A DNA stretch of 32,000 bases from an uncultured archaeon (GTDB lineage Archaea > Asgardarchaeota > Lokiarchaeia > Sigyniarchaeales > Promethearchaeaceae), in contig CAYRPF010000006.1 of the NCBI GenBank assembly GCA_964426185.1, positions 42,711 to 74,710 of the forward strand, given 5' to 3'. Below are positions 4,202 through 19,490 of this stretch, piece by piece. The position numbers and the translations under genes are program-made. Under the pieces are notes generated by a model. The model did not search any database and was not told the DNA's origin. It saw nothing but the letters and a program-made list of their open reading frames with translations. Each line of letters begins with the position of its first letter. Within the stretch, counting starts at the first letter, position 1.

Positions 4202-5329
4202 TTAATATACCGCCCATTTACCGCATCGATCTCCCCAACGAGCAACCAATTCTTTCTTCTTCTTTCCGTCTTTTTCATCTGTGTTGTGCATATAAACGGA
4301 TACAACTTCACATCGATTAGGACAACCTTGACATTGAAAAGTTTTAGTTTCAAAATCGAAATGTAATAAACCAAATCCACGAAATTGTGTTTTCCAACTA
4401 CCAGTCATTTTACGCGTGCGTTCTGCTTCTTCTTTCACTAATAATGCTGCACCATATGCTCCCATCATAATGTTTAATCCATCTTTGGGAACAATAACTT
4501 TCTTATGAAGTTCTTCTTCGAATGCTTTAATTAAACCTTCATTAAATGCCACACCACCTTGAAATAATATTGGTTCCTCAATTTCCTTTCCTTTACCAAC
4601 ATTATTAAGGTAATTTCGAACCAAAGCATCGCATAATCCCCGAATGATGCTTTCTTTTGTATATCCCATTTGAGCTTTGTGAATCATGTCTGATTCAGCA
4701 AAAACTCCGCATCGTCCTGCAATAGTGACATTTTCTTTAGCACGTAGAGCATAATCACCGAATTTTTCTATAGGAATTCCTAATCTGGTAGCTTGATGAT
4801 CTAAAAAACTCCCAGTTCCAGCAGCACAAACAGAATTCATAGCAAAATCTGCAACAATTCCATCTCGGAGAATAATAATTTTTGAATCTTGCCCTCCAAT
4901 CTCTAAAATGGTACGAACTTCAGGATAATAATGACTGGCGGCTACAGCATGGGCAATAATTTCAGTTTTTGCAATATCTCCACCTACTACACTTTTTATC
5001 AGATAGCGCGCCGAACCGGTGGTACCCACTCCAATAATGCGAATTTTTTCTAATATCCCACGTTCTTCTAGTTTTTTTTTTAATTGAGTCAACCCTTTTT
5101 TGGAAGATTCGATTGGACTACCTTGATTTCGTAACCAGAGGCGTTCTACGATATTTTCTTGTTCATCTAATAAGAGTATTTTGATAGATACCGATCCAAT
5201 ATCGATCCCCATATATACATTTCGGATCTTTTGAAATTTCCCTTGTTTATTGATTTGTATTTTGGATACTTCTGAATCAATTTGGACAGTAGTCGCAAGG
5301 TTAGTTTTTTCTAGCTCTGGTTTTTCCAT
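4202..5329 (-). CDS. ASKHA-family CoA-substrate activator ATPase (HgdC / BadF-BadG-BcrA-BcrD type) with C-terminal Cys cluster; PlsA/Ger activation-domain-like
   Basis: Motifs GIDIGS, GTTGSAR, EIIAH, ILEIGGQDSK, NSVCAAGTGSFL, RCGVFAESD, FQGGVA, MGAYGAAL. C-terminal CQGCPNRC...GDRC. Confidence 0.92.
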   Translation of the reverse strand: MEKPELEKTNLATTVQIDSEVSKIQINKQGKFQKIRNVYMGIDIGSVSIKILLLDEQENIVERLWLRNQGSPIESSKKGLTQLKKKLEERGILEKIRIIGVGTTGSARYLIKSVVGGDIAKTEIIAHAVAASHYYPEVRTILEIGGQDSKIIILRDGIVADFAMNSVCAAGTGSFLDHQATRLGIPIEKFGDYALRAKENVTIAGRCGVFAESDMIHKAQMGYTKESIIRGLCDALVRNYLNNVGKGKEIEEPILFQGGVAFNEGLIKAFEEELHKKVIVPKDGLNIMMGAYGAALLVKEEAERTRKMTGSWKTQFRGFGLLHFDFETKTFQCQGCPNRCEVVSVYMHNTDEKDGKKKKELVARWGDRCGKWAVY

Positions 5330-6618
5330 TAATTATCACTATCTTCCTTACTATTTTTTTCTGTGGCTTTCGTATTAAAAATCTCCGATAATAAAATATT
5401 GAAGTTATTGGCAATTGGGGTGAGTAATTCATCAAATAATGGATTTTTTTTAGCTTTTGAGAGGTGTTGATCATAAATTTTTCCAATTTCATGAGGTTCT
5501 TGGTATTTCCCTTTGAAGCGTGGATTTTCTTGGCGATTGGATTTCATTAAATCGATAAAACTTTCTAAACGTGTGCGCATCCCTTCGTATCCTGTATGTT
5601 CATCAATGCTATAGAACTGAATTGGTAAATAAAATGGATCAGGACTTTGCCCTTCTAGAATCCCACGCGCAGTGTTTTCAGGCATGCAAGTAAAAGGATA
5701 TAAATGAATAAAACCATCAAATCCCAGTTGCTGGGCTTCAATATAATGTCCTACTACCCACATGGCTTCTCCTCCAATATCTAAAGGAATGTAAGGTTTT
5801 GAAAAACGTTCTAACTTTTTTCGTTCTAAATTAATGTGCAACTTATGAAGAATCCAGTCATATAAGCTATTTGCTAAATGGACTTCAATCCCTTCTTCTC
5901 CAAATTTCCGAACAATATCCATATTTACGAAAGGTTCCATGACTATATGATTTTCTCCCGTTACTACAATCCGTAAAGGTTCAATATCCCTTTTAATTGG
6001 AATTTTTCGGAATTCTTCTTGGATAATTTGGCTGAAATTATGAAGTTTATATAAATCCCACTCCTCATCCAGTCGATCCATTAATATTTTCACAGTTTGG
6101 GTTGTATTTCCTTTATGAATTTCTCTACATCGTACTAAGCCCTCTAAACGAGTTATATCTGCAATATGGCTCATTTTTGATAGGGCTAAGCGGGTACAGT
6201 TGATTATGTCAAAATATTTCATGAGTGGATCTGTTATGTTTGTCAATTGAAGCAGAGTTTTCGTCCATTTGAAATTAAGCAGGTTATCTTGTTGTATAGG
6301 AATGATTTCTACATCGTATCCTAAATCTTTTAAGATTTTTTCTTGAATTGGGGCATAAAATCCAAGCCGACACGGACCACAATCGATTGACATCACAAAA
6401 GTATGAATATCGTGATTTTTAATCATGTTAATGAATTCACCTAATGTCACCTTGAAAGGAAAGCAGACGAATTCCGGTGAAACTTTGGCTCCCATTTTTA
6501 TTACGTCACGGGTTACAGGTGGTGGTGGAAACACTGTCACTCCTGGTAATTTCTCAAATAGTGCTCGAAATGCAATTCGACTCCAGCCCATAGAAGGAAA
6601 ACTTATTAATTTGCCCAT
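5329..6618 (-). CDS. 2-hydroxyacyl-CoA dehydratase-like Fe-S subunit (PlsR / C-terminal reductase-domain-like)
   Basis: Motifs SPEFVCFPFKVTLG, CGPCRLGFY, VVTGENH, YPFTCMPE, DEHTGYEGMRTRLESF. TAATG overlap with the activator gene. Confidence 0.82.
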   Translation of the reverse strand: MGKLISFPSMGWSRIAFRALFEKLPGVTVFPPPPVTRDVIKMGAKVSPEFVCFPFKVTLGEFINMIKNHDIHTFVMSIDCGPCRLGFYAPIQEKILKDLGYDVEIIPIQQDNLLNFKWTKTLLQLTNITDPLMKYFDIINCTRLALSKMSHIADITRLEGLVRCREIHKGNTTQTVKILMDRLDEEWDLYKLHNFSQIIQEEFRKIPIKRDIEPLRIVVTGENHIVMEPFVNMDIVRKFGEEGIEVHLANSLYDWILHKLHINLERKKLERFSKPYIPLDIGGEAMWVVGHYIEAQQLGFDGFIHLYPFTCMPENTARGILEGQSPDPFYLPIQFYSIDEHTGYEGMRTRLESFIDLMKSNRQENPRFKGKYQEPHEIGKIYDQHLSKAKKNPLFDELLTPIANNFNILLSEIFNTKATEKNSKEDSDN

Positions 6619-6633
6619 TAGAATTTCTCCGTT

Positions 6634-7716
6634 TTATTTGTTATAAGGTTCGTTTGATTTTGTTTCTAAGAGATGTGAGTATTTTTTTCTGCGGATCATA
6701 TCTACAAATGATTCTATCCGTGTTACCATTCCAGATTCACCCGAATGTTCATCGAGAATTAAAGTTAAGAATGGAATTTTGCGGGTTTTCATATCTCGCA
6801 TTACTAATTCTTCTATAAGACTATCTGGACCACATGAAAAAGAAATCAGAAAAATAACTCCATCGATTTCACTTTTTCCCTCTGTTAAGTAATATCTAGC
6901 GGTTTTTAGAATTTCATCTTCACTCTGCCAATATTGTTCATAGATTTTATTAATTTTTACTGGTTTTTTGAATTTTTCTGGATGAGTATCTTCAATTGTT
7001 AAAATACGGCAATCTAATGTTTTCAATCGTTCAATAAGATGCATATTAATATAAGATTCATAGACATTGTAGGGGTGTCCCAGAAGAAGAATAGAAAGAG
7101 GAAATTTTCCTCGAATTTTTTCAGCAATCATTTCATGAAATTTTCTTTTTTTAAGAACATGGCTTGGATTTTCATCGAAACTTGCTAAGATATCCAAGTA
7201 ATTAGTAGAATTCATCTGGGATTGCAGTTCTTTAAATTTTTTGAGAGCAATTACCCAAGTTTTCCCCGAATCTTCAGCTGAATATCCTAATTCTTTTCCC
7301 ATATTGATAGCGCCCTCAATTCCGTATTGCTTTTTTGCATTAACTTCAAGTGTTAATATTGGAACTGGTAATTTCATTCCATATTTGATGGTTTCAGGCA
7401 ATGTCAAGAATTTTGGGCAATAATATTGATTATGATGAATGGAAACATATCGAGGGATGAAAATATAATCTAAATCTGGGTTTTCTTCAAGAAGGGCATG
7501 CACATGTCCGAAATATAGCTTCATCGGAACGCAAAGTTCGGAAACTGCTTGTTTTGCTCCAAATTCCACTATTTTGGCTGTAGTTGGTGGAGAAATTACT
7601 ACTTCACATTGAAATTGGCGGAGTAAATATATCCATAATGGACCATAGCGGTAAAAATAAAGTGCTCTCGGGATCCCTACTTTTAATTTTCGTATGAAAT
7701 TCTCATTTTCTACCAT
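6634..7716 (-). CDS. DUF2229 (CoA-enzyme activase-associated) dehydratase/reductase-like Fe-S subunit
   Basis: Motifs KVGIPRALYFY, VVISPPT, SELCVPMKLYFGHV, YCPKF, LLGHPYN, SFSCGPD, DEHSGESGMVTRIESF. Confidence 0.85.
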   Translation of the reverse strand: MVENENFIRKLKVGIPRALYFYRYGPLWIYLLRQFQCEVVISPPTTAKIVEFGAKQAVSELCVPMKLYFGHVHALLEENPDLDYIFIPRYVSIHHNQYYCPKFLTLPETIKYGMKLPVPILTLEVNAKKQYGIEGAINMGKELGYSAEDSGKTWVIALKKFKELQSQMNSTNYLDILASFDENPSHVLKKRKFHEMIAEKIRGKFPLSILLLGHPYNVYESYINMHLIERLKTLDCRILTIEDTHPEKFKKPVKINKIYEQYWQSEDEILKTARYYLTEGKSEIDGVIFLISFSCGPDSLIEELVMRDMKTRKIPFLTLILDEHSGESGMVTRIESFVDMIRRKKYSHLLETKSNEPYNK

Positions 7717-8541
7717 TTAATTTATACTCCCTGATTGATTCTCCTTTTTTCTATCTTCAACTTCAGCCCATAAGTCTGTCCATAAGCTTTTGATTTTTCG
7801 TTTTACTTTTTTGTTAATTTTCTCTAAAAGCCGATAATCTAACTCGTGACTTTCTTTAAAGAGAGAATCGGGCAATAACGGTTTCCCAAAGCGAAGCAAA
7901 ATTTTCCCTTTAATGGCAGGAATTTTCATCTTTGGACCAAAAACACGATCTGTTCCGAAAATTGCTAAAGGAATTATAGGTACACGACTTTCAAACGCAA
8001 CACGAATATATTCTGGATAAAAGGGTAATAGATTTCCATTTCCTCGATTGGGTCGCATTTCAGGATATAGGATTATCCATTTATGTTGTTCCAAGTGTTC
8101 AATACATTCTTCTATGGCATTTTCTTCTAAATCTGCAGTACGTGAGAAAATAGCTTGATTGATTCGTACAAGATTCATCATCATGGAATCCACCCCTAAT
8201 CTCATAGGGAGAACATGATATGGAATTTTTTTCATCTTATGCATAATACTAATCCCACAAATGATGGGATCTAAAACTGACTGAAAATTTGCAACAAATA
8301 ACGCTCCTTTTGAAGTAAATGTTTCTAAATGCTCTATATCAGAAATTTCCAAACCATATTGCGTAGTAAAAAGCCTCCATAAAAGCGGTTCTTCAATACC
8401 TCGAAGAAAAAGACCGTCAATTGCTTCTAAATATCCAATTTTTTTTGTCACTTGTCGAAGGCCGTAGATATTATTATTCAGAGGGTCAATAATATATTTT
8501 CTAAGGAAATCCATACCGAAATTTTCCGTCATTGTAAACAC
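7717..8541 (-). CDS. PlsC-fold lysophospholipid acyltransferase paralogue with degenerate catalytic motifs
   Basis: GALFVANFQSVLDP (His of HX4D replaced by Phe), LYPEMRP (vs FPEGTR), VPIIPLAIFGT, LRFGKPL. Stop abuts the next start codon. Confidence 0.8.
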   Translation of the reverse strand: MFTMTENFGMDFLRKYIIDPLNNNIYGLRQVTKKIGYLEAIDGLFLRGIEEPLLWRLFTTQYGLEISDIEHLETFTSKGALFVANFQSVLDPIICGISIMHKMKKIPYHVLPMRLGVDSMMMNLVRINQAIFSRTADLEENAIEECIEHLEQHKWIILYPEMRPNRGNGNLLPFYPEYIRVAFESRVPIIPLAIFGTDRVFGPKMKIPAIKGKILLRFGKPLLPDSLFKESHELDYRLLEKINKKVKRKIKSLWTDLWAEVEDRKKENQSGSIN

Positions 8542-8561
8542 TTCCCAAACATGCAGTAAAA

Positions 8562-9596
8562 CTAAGAAATACTTAGATTATCCATCTCAGACGGTACCTT
8601 TTTCTTGGACTTTTCATTATACATTTCTGGAATTGATGTTTCACTGGTTGTTGCAACATCTTCTTTAACTAAATTACTCTGATTATTCAAGATCTCAACC
8701 GGAGCAATATCTTCTTTAGAGCGAATTATTCTAGATTTGTTCATTTTTCCAGAAAGTAGCAAAATGACATCATTCCGCATCGCTTCTTTAATTAATTCAG
8801 CATTTTCAATATTTGGCGCCAAGGATGGATCAATATAAACAGGATTTCCAATAACCACTGAGATTTTATATCCTTTATTCCAACGGATGCCTAACACATT
8901 TACATGCTTAGGAAACACTTTAAAGGCACCAAAAATTGCACAAGGCACATAAGGAACTCCTGTTTCGAGACACAAACGGGCTGCCCCTTTTCGAAATGGG
9001 CCTAATTTGCCATCTGGTGATCGAGTTCCTTCCGGAAACATCCCCACACACCCCCCTCCTTCCAAGACAGAACGAACCTTAGTTAAGGCAGCTTCATCTT
9101 TCTGTTCTCTTTTTAAAGGTATTGTGCCAAAGGGCTTAATTATTGAGCGAAAAATGGGAATTTCGAAATTTTCTGCTTTAGAAAGCCATTGTACTTTTCT
9201 GTGAACAGCTGATCCTACTAAGAAAGGATCAAATTCTGATTGATGATTTGCAATTACCAGAGCACCACCGTGTTCGGGAAAATTTTCTTTACCCTTTATC
9301 TCATAACCCCAGAAAGTGCGGAAAAATTGAATGAAATTGGCTCTTCCAACATTCCAATAGATAAATTCATCATAAATCTCTAGTATTCCCAATTCATTCA
9401 AGAATTTTCTTCCCCAGTCACAAATAGGGTCAAATGGATTATACTTTAAAAGAAGCTTGAGAATTCCGGAGGTGACGGAAGATAATGTAGGTTTTGAAGA
9501 AATTTGTGCTTTTTTTTGCATAGTTAGTTTATTATCGGGCTTATTGCCCGATCTATCTATTGAATCTTCGTTTTCTGGCACCGTAACAACCTCCAT
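8562..9596 (-). CDS. plsC: 1-acyl-sn-glycerol-3-phosphate acyltransferase (PlsC/LPLAT family)
   Basis: Intact motifs ANHQSEFDP (HX4D), LSKAENF, GTIPLKR, MFPEGTRSPDG, FRKGAARL, VPYVPCAIFG. Confidence 0.92.
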   Translation of the reverse strand: MEVVTVPENEDSIDRSGNKPDNKLTMQKKAQISSKPTLSSVTSGILKLLLKYNPFDPICDWGRKFLNELGILEIYDEFIYWNVGRANFIQFFRTFWGYEIKGKENFPEHGGALVIANHQSEFDPFLVGSAVHRKVQWLSKAENFEIPIFRSIIKPFGTIPLKREQKDEAALTKVRSVLEGGGCVGMFPEGTRSPDGKLGPFRKGAARLCLETGVPYVPCAIFGAFKVFPKHVNVLGIRWNKGYKISVVIGNPVYIDPSLAPNIENAELIKEAMRNDVILLLSGKMNKSRIIRSKEDIAPVEILNNQSNLVKEDVATTSETSIPEMYNEKSKKKVPSEMDNLSIS

Positions 9597-16886: not shown

Positions 16887-19490
16887 ATGGTTCAATCAAT
16901 ACCACCCAAAAATAACGACATTTTATTTTCATTGCAGAAAATATTCCCCCGACATGTAAAAAATGCAAGGGGATCACTGAAACCCTTTAATCCCGATAAA
17001 ATGGTTGAAAGCTTAAATAAAGAAACAGGATTAGATTGGAATGAATGCATCGAAGTGGTCAAAGATTCACTCAAAAGAATTACAATTTTAGGACTGGTTA
17101 CCATCCAAACTTCCATGATTCGTGAAATTATGTGTTTAGACTTGTTAGCTCGAGGCCATGAACGAGAGCGTAATATTTATGCCAAACTGATTAATCGGAG
17201 TGTCATCAAATTTCAGTTAGATCCTAAATTTATGGAAAAATACAAAGGAAAACAACCAGAGTGGGGTCCTTTAGGCTATATTACCTACAAACGGACTTAT
17301 GCACGTTATATTGTAGCTGAAAACCGCACCGAGGAATTCTATGAAACTGTTCAGCGTGTAGTCGAAGGTGTTTATAGCATTCAGAAAGAACATTGTTACA
17401 ATTTAGGTCTACCTTGGGATCCAGAAAAAGCTCAGAAATCTGCTCAGCGCATGTTTGAAAAGATATGGAATTTTCGATTTTTACCTCCAGGTCGAGGTTT
17501 ATGGATGATGGGTACCGAATTCATTGATAAACATGGTTCCATGGCTTTAAATAACTGCGGTTTTGTATCCACGGAAGATATTGTTATTAAAAAGACCAAA
17601 GCTTTCGAATGGTTGATGGATGCACTGATGCTGGGTGTGGGGGTAGGATTTGACACTAAGGGTGCTGGAAAACTCGTGATCCAAAATCCTAAGAATGAGA
17701 CATTTTTATTTGAGGTCCCAGATAGTCGAGAAGGTTGGGTTCAAGCCCTTAGACATTTATTAACCGCTTATTTTGAGGGTGAAGCAATGCCAATTTTCGA
17801 CTTTTCCAAAGTCCGTCCAGCTGGTACTCCTATCCGTGGATTCGGAGGTGTAGCTTCTGGACCTGAACCATTGAAGGAAATGCTGGATAGTCAAAAAGAA
17901 TTATTAGATAAACGTATTGGAAAAACTCTTTCATCTGTAGATATAGTAGATATGATGAATTTAATCGGAAAATGTGTGGTGGCTGGAAATGTGCGCAGAT
18001 CTGCAGAAATTGCCTTAGGAGAAATTGATGATGAAGAGTATATCAGTTGCAAACAGGATCAAAAAGCTTTATATCATCACCGATGGGCTTCTAACAACAG
18101 TATCATCGGCCGTAAGGGAATGAATTACGATAAAATTATTGATTCTATAGCAAAAAATGGAGAACCTGGAATTATTTGGTTGGAAAACTCACAAGCATTC
18201 AGTAGAATGGGAAGAGCTCCTGATTATAAAGATAAAAAAGCTGTTGGTGTGAACCCATGTGGAGAACAGACTTTGGAATCATTTGAACTTTGCTGCTTAG
18301 TTGAAACATTTCCTTCTTTGCATGAATCCTATGAAGAATTTGAAGAAACATTAAAATATGCCTATCTTTATGCAAAATCCGTAACCTTAGTTAATGTACA
18401 CTGGAATGAGACTAATGCGGTAATGGGAAAAAACAGAAGGATTGGAACCAGTCAAACTGGAATTATTGACGCATTCGCTCGTCATGGCCGTCGTACTATC
18501 TTGGAGTGGTCGGATAAGGGTTATCAATTTTTACGTAAATTGGATGAGCAATATTCAGATTTCTTCTGCGTGCCTCAATCGATCAAAATTACAACGGTAA
18601 AACCAAGTGGCACTGTTAGTTTACTGCCCGGTGTGGCACCTGGGATTCATTACCCTCATTCTGAGTACTATATCCGCCGTATTCGGATTTCTAAAGAGTC
18701 TACTTTGATAGACCTTTTAAGAGAAGCGAATTATCACATAGAACCCGATGCATATTCAGATAATAGTTTTGTTGTTGAATTTCCAATTCATGAGAAGAAT
18801 TTTCTTCGAGCAAAAAAGGATGTTTCAATTTGGGAGCAATTGGCTAATGCCATAGATTATCAACATTATTGGAGCGATAATCAAGTTTCTATTACCGTTA
18901 CATTCAAAAAAGAAGAAGTCAAAGATCTCAAATATGCCTTACAATTCGTGGAAGATAAAGTAAAAGGATTAAGCTTGCTTCCACTCACTGATTCGGGTTA
19001 TAAACAAATGCCATATGAGGAGATTACTAAAGAAGAATTTGAAAAGCGAGTTGCAAAAATAAAACCCATTAAAACATGGATTACTCATGAAAAGTCCGTT
19101 GGAACAATTTATTGCGATGGCGACAGCTGCCATCAAGTAGACGAAGCAGCAGTTCTCCGAGAAATGGAGAACCTTTTAAATGAACGAATTCCTGCGGTAG
19201 AAAATATTTCTTCCGAATCTTTTGGATTTAATGTAAAAAATGGAGTAATTCTTGAAGTTGGGCTCTACAATAAACACCTTAAAGCATTACCAAGTAATTT
19301 TTCTCATTTGGTTAATTTAAGGAGGTTAAATTTGAAAAATTGCGGATTAACTCGACTTCCGGATGGAATTGTCGAATTCCGTGATTTAGATTTTCTTGAT
19401 CTTACTGGTAATTCGTTTGCTTCATTAACACAAGAACAGCAACAATGGTTGGATAATTTACAAAGAAATGGTTGTAAAATACTCATGTAA
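16887..19490 (+). CDS. nrdJ: Class II (adenosylcobalamin-dependent) ribonucleoside-triphosphate reductase with N-terminal ATP-cone and C-terminal leucine-rich-repeat extension
   Basis: YKRTYAR, FLPPGRGLW, LNNCGF, VVAGNVRRSAEI, NPCGEQ (thiyl Cys), LCCLVE, NRRIG, TTVKPSGTVSLL, QVSITV, YCDGDSC tail. ATP-cone at the N-terminus and LxxLxLxxNxL repeats at the C-terminus. Strong SD AAGGAGG. Confidence 0.93.
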   Translation: MVQSIPPKNNDILFSLQKIFPRHVKNARGSLKPFNPDKMVESLNKETGLDWNECIEVVKDSLKRITILGLVTIQTSMIREIMCLDLLARGHERERNIYAKLINRSVIKFQLDPKFMEKYKGKQPEWGPLGYITYKRTYARYIVAENRTEEFYETVQRVVEGVYSIQKEHCYNLGLPWDPEKAQKSAQRMFEKIWNFRFLPPGRGLWMMGTEFIDKHGSMALNNCGFVSTEDIVIKKTKAFEWLMDALMLGVGVGFDTKGAGKLVIQNPKNETFLFEVPDSREGWVQALRHLLTAYFEGEAMPIFDFSKVRPAGTPIRGFGGVASGPEPLKEMLDSQKELLDKRIGKTLSSVDIVDMMNLIGKCVVAGNVRRSAEIALGEIDDEEYISCKQDQKALYHHRWASNNSIIGRKGMNYDKIIDSIAKNGEPGIIWLENSQAFSRMGRAPDYKDKKAVGVNPCGEQTLESFELCCLVETFPSLHESYEEFEETLKYAYLYAKSVTLVNVHWNETNAVMGKNRRIGTSQTGIIDAFARHGRRTILEWSDKGYQFLRKLDEQYSDFFCVPQSIKITTVKPSGTVSLLPGVAPGIHYPHSEYYIRRIRISKESTLIDLLREANYHIEPDAYSDNSFVVEFPIHEKNFLRAKKDVSIWEQLANAIDYQHYWSDNQVSITVTFKKEEVKDLKYALQFVEDKVKGLSLLPLTDSGYKQMPYEEITKEEFEKRVAKIKPIKTWITHEKSVGTIYCDGDSCHQVDEAAVLREMENLLNERIPAVENISSESFGFNVKNGVILEVGLYNKHLKALPSNFSHLVNLRRLNLKNCGLTRLPDGIVEFRDLDFLDLTGNSFASLTQEQQQWLDNLQRNGCKILM

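Follow-up and report, generated by a model that had tools for sequence, protein, structure and literature searches.

We report that a stretch of 32,000 nucleotides from an uncultured Asgard archaeon (GenBank assembly GCA_964426185.1, contig CAYRPF010000006.1, positions 42,711 to 74,710; the window hereafter) carries an operon that joins acyltransferases of the PlsC family to a reductase of the DUF2229 lineage, and that this operon is vertically conserved in Asgard archaea. As the conversion of an ester to a vinyl or alkyl ether is the only chemistry known in the DUF2229 lineage, where the functions proven in the literature searched are those of PlsA/PlsR and Ger (PMC13159169, PMC12838417), we tentatively favour ester-to-ether reduction on an acyl lipid as the single most likely function. 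The window lies on contig C6 of a metagenome-assembled genome of 3.26 Mb that is 92% complete. Open reading frame (ORF) calling between positions 4202 and 9596 reproduced the five minus-strand genes, with spacings of 20, 0, 15 and -1 bp, that a first-pass annotation of this DNA had described, and Pfam searches returned the gene content that it had read there, namely PlsC, PlsC, DUF2229, a dehydratase-like Fe-S protein and an ASKHA activase. From upstream to downstream, the genes are as follows.

8562-9596, minus strand: PlsC1, 344 aa, PF01553 match at 9.5e-31
7717-8541, minus strand: PlsC2, 274 aa, PF01553 match at 1.1e-13
6634-7716, minus strand: D1 (Red1), 360 aa, DUF2229 match at 5.6e-44
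5329-6618, minus strand: D2 (Red2), 429 aa, weak N-terminal DUF2229 match at 4.1e-08
4202-5329, minus strand: Act, 375 aa, BcrAD_BadFG match at 6.7e-46

The conservation of the operon was assessed in a sample of 251 genomes of the phylum, with a D1 orthologue defined by E <= 1e-80. Such an orthologue is present in 46 genomes (41-86% identity) from 12 genera in the GTDB families f1, f2, f3 and f17; these genomes are kin and do not count as independent trials. A PF01553 gene lies directly upstream on the same strand in 43 of the 46, and two more cases (G121 and G237) were seen in the retrieved loci, raising the count to 45; in the remaining genome (G168) the D1 locus begins at a contig end. The adjacency of plsC, proposed earlier as a point to be checked, thus held in 45/46 Asgard genomes with a D1 orthologue and in the cultured Promethearchaeum syntrophicum MK-D1, which has PlsC (65% identity), D1 (60%), D2 (64%) and Act (70%) in this order (CP042905.2, about 336.5-341.0 kb). 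Over the 12 genera, and down to about 41% identity, the genes keep their order and strand and remain closely packed (0 to 20 bp, stop and start codons adjoining); in the window itself, D1 starts directly after the stop codon of PlsC2. Among named genomes, the nearest is Candidatus Harpocratesius repetitus FW102, a closed genome (G210) of the same GTDB genus with a D1 identity of 85%; NCBI places the genus in Promethearchaeota, and of the best 120 D1 homologues, all that carry a name are from Asgard archaea. The probable Asgard host suggested from the sequence alone was therefore correct, and the genus is that of Ca. Harpocratesius.

PlsC1 has the sequence features expected of an active acyltransferase of the AGPAT/PlsC superfamily. 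Motif I (HX4D) reads HQSEFD at residues 118-123 and motif III reads FPEGTRS at residues 187-193, the PF01553 score of 106.8 bits is far above the cut-off of 23, and motifs I-IV are all present, as they are in the Thermotoga maritima PlsC (PDB 5KYM), to which PlsC1 matches at 3.5e-17. Unlike the T. maritima enzyme, PlsC1 has an N-terminal extension of about 95 residues with a conserved (L/I)xKYNPxDP motif, lacks a predicted membrane helix and is accompanied by a dead partner, which in relatives is the second domain of a fused protein. Its scores are below the cut-offs for PlsC sensu stricto (TIGR00530, 96.3 bits against 102.95; PRK15018, 34.8 against 501), and its best NCBIfam matches include lysophospholipid-type acyltransferases (Aas-like PRK08633). 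The second PlsC was confirmed as degenerate: motif I reads NFQSVLD, with the catalytic His replaced by Phe so that HX4D is lost, and motif III has decayed to YPEMRPN, while the protein still scores 51.6 bits against PF01553. The same substitutions recur in the full-length orthologues of G210 (64% identity) and G089 (54%), and the full-length dead gene is common to three genomes of the Harpocratesius genus. Judging from these residues, PlsC2 is probably a catalytically dead paralogue that serves as a non-catalytic partner. In family f2, where both PlsC units are fused into a protein of about 555 aa, the second domain is homologous to PlsC2 and retains NHNSEWD and YPEGTTN. As HX4D and motif III are intact in both domains of the f2 protein, the inactivation of PlsC2 appears to be specific to Harpocratesius.

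The three downstream genes encode two Fe-S subunits and an activase. The match of D1 to DUF2229 runs the full length (profile positions 1-215 of 218), whereas that to HGD-D (PF06050) is below the cut-off of 28.4 bits and covers residues 281-341 only. Likewise, dehydratases in the PDB match by sequence just the last ~60 residues of D1; D2 gave no match to the HGD-D profile and none to dehydratases in a sequence search of the PDB, and the NCBIfam search gave no informative family for either subunit. A profile search of the source genome found no full-length HGD-D protein, and its sole HGD-D match over the cut-off is a D2 paralogue on contig C45 (28.8 bits, profile positions 194-341 only). The AlphaFold2 model of D1 (pLDDT 91.4) has its best Foldseek matches (E = 9e-10) in HadBC (3O3N/3O3M), DCCP (7YYL/6ENO) and BzdNO (8S02), that of D2 (pLDDT 83.1) in DCCP (6ENO), HadBC and BzdNO (E = 1e-8), and the top matches of both (HadBC, DCCP, BzdNO and MbdON) all have a probability of 1.00. 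Cys62, Cys100 and Cys295 of D1 are invariant in 19/19 sequences, as are Cys52, Cys83 and Cys311 of D2 in 17/17, and the corresponding domains of fused Ger-type proteins (D and C-terminal) keep both sets of three as well. The models thus indicate that D1 and D2, which share 21% identity, are two homologous Fe-S subunits of the fold found in 2-hydroxyacyl-CoA dehydratases (HAD), benzoyl-CoA reductases (BCR) and the double-cubane reductase DCCP; for D2, described before as a second dehydratase-like Fe-S protein, fold and cysteines agree with that description.

Act, encoded last in the operon, consists of a single ASKHA activase domain (TIGR00241, 188.9 bits, above the cut-off). Cys168 and Cys207, 39 residues apart, are invariant in 14/14 sequences and are putative ligands of a bridging [4Fe-4S] cluster; the pair had been compared with that of HgdC. 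Act also has a C-terminal CxxCxxxC...C at residues 333, 336, 340 and 369, which recurs in the fused Ger-type proteins, in their second activase domain. Among PDB entries, Act matches MbdQ (1.6e-36), HadI (6.5e-33) and HgdC (1.6e-30) with 110-130 bits; it is nearer to the second activase domain of the fused protein (34% identity, 176 bits). D1, D2 and Act resemble HadBC/HadI, HgdAB/HgdC, BzdNO, MbdONPQ and DCCP/DCCP-R in the fold of D1 and D2 and in having an ATP-driven ASKHA activator with a bridging cluster. They differ in that the sequence similarity to these systems is limited to about 60 C-terminal residues of D1 and is nil in D2, and in that the operon has no CoA-transferase genes.

The known systems nearest to the reductase are Ger (Thermotoga maritima Tmari_0479 and Desulfatibacillum alkenivorans SHJ90043) and PlsA/PlsR of Clostridium perfringens (CPE1194/1195) (PMC13159169, PMC12838417); Ger and PlsA are not distinguishable by sequence (PMC13274423). 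The operon shares with these systems a BcrAD_BadFG activase, a DUF2229 Red1 and a HAD-like Red2, here as separate proteins, as well as three Cys per reductase domain, the C-terminal Cys4 of the activase and an anaerobic setting, and in relatives the module adjoins PlsA/PlsR-like genes. It differs in layout, with three genes in the order Red1-Red2-Act instead of Act-Act-Red1(-Red2); confirmed Ger has two tandem N-terminal activase domains fused to DUF2229 (PMC13159169), whereas the operon has one. The linkage to PlsC is a further difference, as no such linkage was found described for PlsA or Ger in the literature searched. Together, the sequence comparisons support a place for D1, D2 and Act in the DUF2229 (PlsA/Ger-related) lineage and not among dehydratases of the HgdAB/HadBC type.

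The source genome also encodes a fused protein of canonical Ger/PlsA architecture (1454 aa; C31:27629-31993, L004:7633-11994, minus strand), with two BcrAD_BadFG domains, DUF2229 and an HGD-D tail. This protein is 61% identical to that of P. syntrophicum, about 55% to Heimdall proteins and about 43% to bacterial ones, its gene is flanked by a class-III aminotransferase and an S-adenosylmethionine (SAM) methyltransferase, and proteins of this type are the published 'Ger homologs' of Loki and Heimdall archaea (PMC13159169). D1 aligns end to end with its D domain (2.8e-15, about 23% identity). In a Red1-domain tree of 102 rows, a branch with an SH-aLRT support of 100 parts all fused/BBD forms from all split forms; the fused clade comprises MK-D1 and Heimdall homologues (termed Ger homologues in PMC13159169) and bacterial 1400-aa forms, and the experimentally characterised PlsA, PlsR and Ger sequences are outside the tree. 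The PlsC-linked Asgard D1s form a clade (support 99) that includes a paralogue fused to a flavin adenine dinucleotide (FAD) domain and one bacterial-looking sequence, with an Omnitrophota sequence as sister. The first-pass annotation had left it to such a comparison whether the proteins group with PlsA/Ger or with the dehydratases of amino-acid fermentation. They are not with the latter (150.8 bits to DUF2229 versus 24.1 bits to HGD-D for D1), and they are outside the fused PlsA/Ger clade as well. Its description of a 'split plasmalogen-synthase/Ger-like reductase' does not hold, given the separate family in the tree, the single activase domain and the presence of a fused Ger-type gene in the same genome.

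A second D1-D2-Act triplet in this genome (C45:14804-17938, L005:7805-10936, plus strand) has no PlsC and adjoins an Arf-family small GTPase gene. It is 30% (D1), 31% (D2) and 51% (Act) identical to the window genes, and its D1 is placed elsewhere in the tree, among bacterial split forms. A search with D1 of 1.8 billion cluster representatives returned 2,633 clusters, in which the best-scoring non-orthologues are stand-alone forms of 300-350 aa and D1-D2 fusions of about 730 aa. The named bacterial relatives, from Petroclostridium xylanilyticum (WP_094549658.1), Heliobacteriaceae (MDD2421184.1) and Omnitrophota (MBU2495011.1), are bare D1-D2-Act triplets that share the layout and sizes of the Asgard module, 31-42% D1 identity and the same Red1 clade.

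Across Asgard archaea the operon occurs in two types, PlsC-D1-D2-Act and PlsC-D1 followed by PlsA/PlsR-like BBD (about 980 aa) and Red2 (about 469 aa) genes; in relatives the PlsA/PlsR-like genes stand within or beside the operon. For genus g3, we considered that a solo D1 might partner only the neighbouring BBD and Red2; this was dropped, as D2 orthologues are present on other contigs there. The fused two-domain PlsC of locus L022 passes TIGR00530 (AGP_acyltrn) with 159.7 bits summed over its two domains. Of the 15 loci with a gene for a HAD-IA phosphatase (about 245-263 aa), 13 have it 4-240 bp upstream of the two-domain PlsC and the other two have it 3.5-4.2 kb upstream; the pairing includes loci without D1. 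Plant sn-2 glycerol-3-phosphate acyltransferases (GPATs) carry a comparable HAD phosphatase domain, and the substrate of the phosphatase may be the acceptor or the product of acylation. Its gene is located as follows, among others.

L017:6298-7080, HAD-IA phosphatase
L022:18508-19290, HAD-IA phosphatase
L026:11160-11951, HAD-IA phosphatase
L027:6770-7555, HAD-IA phosphatase
L047:10687-11421, HAD-IA phosphatase

Four f2 genomes (G083, G171, G249 and G246; loci L047-L050), two of which are estimated to be 100% complete, retain the phosphatase and the two-domain PlsC together with a third small PF01553 gene and have no D1, suggesting that the two-domain acyltransferase has a role of its own. Other genes near the operon in relatives include an acyl-CoA-synthetase-like (AMP-binding) gene in L006 and a 4HBT thioesterase in L009, and a divergently oriented MFS transporter gene recurs beside it. 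Loci L022 and L023 have a third module between D1 and D2, consisting of a fusion of a VAO-type FAD domain with a D1 paralogue, followed by Act' and D2'. Several f2 genomes encode the fusion (FAD_binding_4-D1 paralogue, 806-837 aa), at the following loci.

L021:8614-11034, minus strand, FAD_binding_4-D1 paralogue fusion
L022:8128-10641, minus strand, FAD_binding_4-D1 paralogue fusion
L023:8563-11001, minus strand, FAD_binding_4-D1 paralogue fusion
L030:2353-4794, plus strand, FAD_binding_4-D1 paralogue fusion

The idea that this FAD domain resembles alkyl-dihydroxyacetone phosphate (DHAP) synthase was rejected, as in the PDB it matches cytokinin dehydrogenase, EncM and DprE1 best, and not AGPS. 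Selenocysteine at an in-frame TGA in f2 was rejected as well; the TGA is the stop codon of the 806-837-aa fusions, which the alignment had overrun.

These data lead us to a working model in which one or two O-acyltransferases of the PlsC family would form, or keep bound, an acyl ester on a backbone of glycerol or glycerol phosphate, and a three-component, oxygen-sensitive radical enzyme would next act on that ester. D1 and D2 would form a heterodimer with one three-Cys [4Fe-4S] site per subunit, and an ATP-driven activase dimer would supply it with an electron of low potential. If the reaction resembles those of PlsA/PlsR and Ger, it would most likely pass through a ketyl radical at the carbonyl of the ester and yield an alk-1-enyl or alkyl ether. 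An O-acyl lipid ester is favoured as the substrate because the coupling to PlsC is tight and conserved, the HAD phosphatase is a neighbour and PlsA/PlsR-like genes are interleaved with the operon. In this model the acceptor, the acyl donor, the complex of D1, D2 and Act, the adaptor role of PlsC2 and the ester-to-ether chemistry are what we infer from these comparisons. A more ambitious version, which we consider unlikely, is that this operon by itself lets archaea make non-isoprenoid ether glycerolipids, via a reductase family distinct from PlsA/Ger; the phosphatase-linked two-site acyltransferase would build an acylglycerol and the three-component reductase would then turn its ester into an ether. 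The split reductase would possibly act at another position, or give another product, than the Ger-type enzyme of the same genome.

Several observations weigh against ester-to-ether reduction on a lipid. As judged from the tree (SH-aLRT 100), D1 appears to fall outside the PlsA/Ger clade, in a separate and deeply split three-gene family, and its identity to the Ger-type D domain is only ~23%. Among the 'additional PlsA homologs lacking the activation domain', it is 'unclear which role' they have (PMC13274423). The bacterial triplet loci examined have neither PlsC nor a recurrent context, and in some f2 genomes the acyltransferase and D1 are separable. Hydropathy analysis predicted a transmembrane segment in neither PlsC1 nor PlsC2, and a search of the 92%-complete source genome did not find PlsY; a gene for a glycerol-3-phosphate dehydrogenase of the GpsA type was found, which counts in favour of the lipid reading. 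The lipids reported so far for MK-D1 are C20 phytane and C40 biphytanes only, from a low-biomass co-culture in which isoprenoids were examined and alkyl glycerols were not targeted (PMC11316595). Finally, the fused Ger-type gene of MK-D1 (L037:2161-12089; CP042905.2, 3.83-3.84 Mb) is flanked on one side by genes for a thiolase, an acyl-CoA dehydrogenase and a MaoC dehydratase, and on the other by genes for two subunits of a CoA-transferase. Such neighbours point to acyl-CoA metabolism instead of membrane-lipid metabolism, and the Asgard members of the DUF2229 lineage may act on CoA esters.

An alternative that we regard as somewhat unlikely is that the module tailors acyl chains: D1, D2 and Act would act on a thioester or a free small substrate, in the manner of 2-hydroxyacyl-CoA dehydratases, benzoyl-CoA reductases or the double-cubane reductase DCCP, and PlsC would then esterify the modified acyl group, with no ether being formed. 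The closest solved folds (HadBC, DCCP and BzdNO/MbdON) do act on CoA esters or small molecules, the bacterial sister modules are without a lipid context, the fused homologue of MK-D1 is embedded in genes resembling those of beta-oxidation, and an AMP-binding ligase and a thioesterase adjoin the operon in relatives. However, neither a CoA-transferase nor an acyl-CoA dehydrogenase is conserved in the operon, HGD-D stays below threshold with the dehydratase match confined to the C-terminal end of D1, and the interleaving with PlsA/PlsR-like genes points to a shared lipid-ester chemistry. It is improbable, in our view, that the operon instead remodels or salvages ester or ether lipids taken from partners or sediment, for example by re-acylation of lysolipids and reductive processing, and does not act de novo. 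Such a role would suit the Aas-like matches of PlsC1, the failure to find PlsY in the source genome, the divergent MFS transporter and the life of the hosts, since Asgard archaea carrying the operon (MK-D1) are syntrophic fermenters (PMC11316595); but the operon has no conserved lipase or esterase gene, and a HAD phosphatase with a two-domain acyltransferase resembles a biosynthetic path from glycerol phosphate to diacylglycerol.

Two further explanations have very little in their favour. PlsC could attach an isoprenoid acid to glycerol phosphate as an ester, from which the reductase could then make the first isoprenoid ether, in place of the GGGP synthase (PcrB/GGGPS, PF01884). Searches of the three genomes of the Harpocratesius genus (G000, G089 and the closed G210) did not find this synthase, and it is reported to be missing from MK-D1 (PMC11316595). 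The enzyme is rare or missing in the Asgard families f3, f6, f15, f18, f26 and f28 and ubiquitous in the rest, with only divergent hits (E = 1e-10 to 1e-15) in f23. A test of the phyletic pattern gave no support to the operon as a substitute: f2 holds both, with GGGPS in 54 of its 55 genomes, while f6, f18 and f28 have neither GGGPS hits nor a PlsC-linked D1, so that the two are not distributed in a complementary way, and we consider this role highly improbable. It is just as improbable that the adjacency has no functional meaning, with acyltransferases and reductase serving unrelated processes. Four genomes do keep the acyltransferase without D1 and the bacterial modules do lack PlsC, but the retention of order, strand and close spacing over 12 genera would be hard to reconcile with chance neighbours. 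Ester-to-ether reduction on an acyl lipid thus remains the reading that we prefer, tentatively.

Homologues of Ger and PlsC in Asgard archaea were already known as scattered genes (PMC13159169, PMC6737245), the latter having been published for Loki and Thor archaea. What is new here is a conserved operon that couples acyltransferases to a distinct reductase family and that is present in the cultured MK-D1; full-text searches of the literature on DUF2229 and on Asgard ether lipids and PlsC found no description of the operon or of a function for the split family. The operon bears on the open question of the origin of bacterial-type lipids in the archaeal host of eukaryotes, and with four to five genes it suits the anaerobic assay in E. 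coli by which Ger and PlsA/PlsR were established. If the preferred reading is true, there would be ester-to-ether lipid chemistry in Asgard archaea, and an annotation would be gained for over 2,600 clusters of DUF2229-related proteins (clustered at 50% identity), the best-scoring of which are stand-alone proteins of 300-380 aa. If the more ambitious version is true, Lokiarchaeia-like Asgard archaea, MK-D1 among them, could make bacterial- or eukaryote-like ether lipids or mixed lipids, and the bacterial DUF2229 triplets would have a first function. If the preferred reading is false, caution would be due against taking any DUF2229 gene, the published Asgard 'Ger homologues' included, as a marker of ether lipids.

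The remaining genes of the window are housekeeping genes, encoding KsgA, SufBC, a class II ribonucleotide reductase, ClpB, an aminoacyl-tRNA synthetase, SecY and an SNF2 helicase, which indicates that the operon is located in the core chromosome. The ORF of the class II (B12-type) ribonucleotide reductase (16887-19490, plus strand, 867 aa) has a weak and partial match to the barrel-domain profile, suggesting that this gene may be divergent or interrupted.

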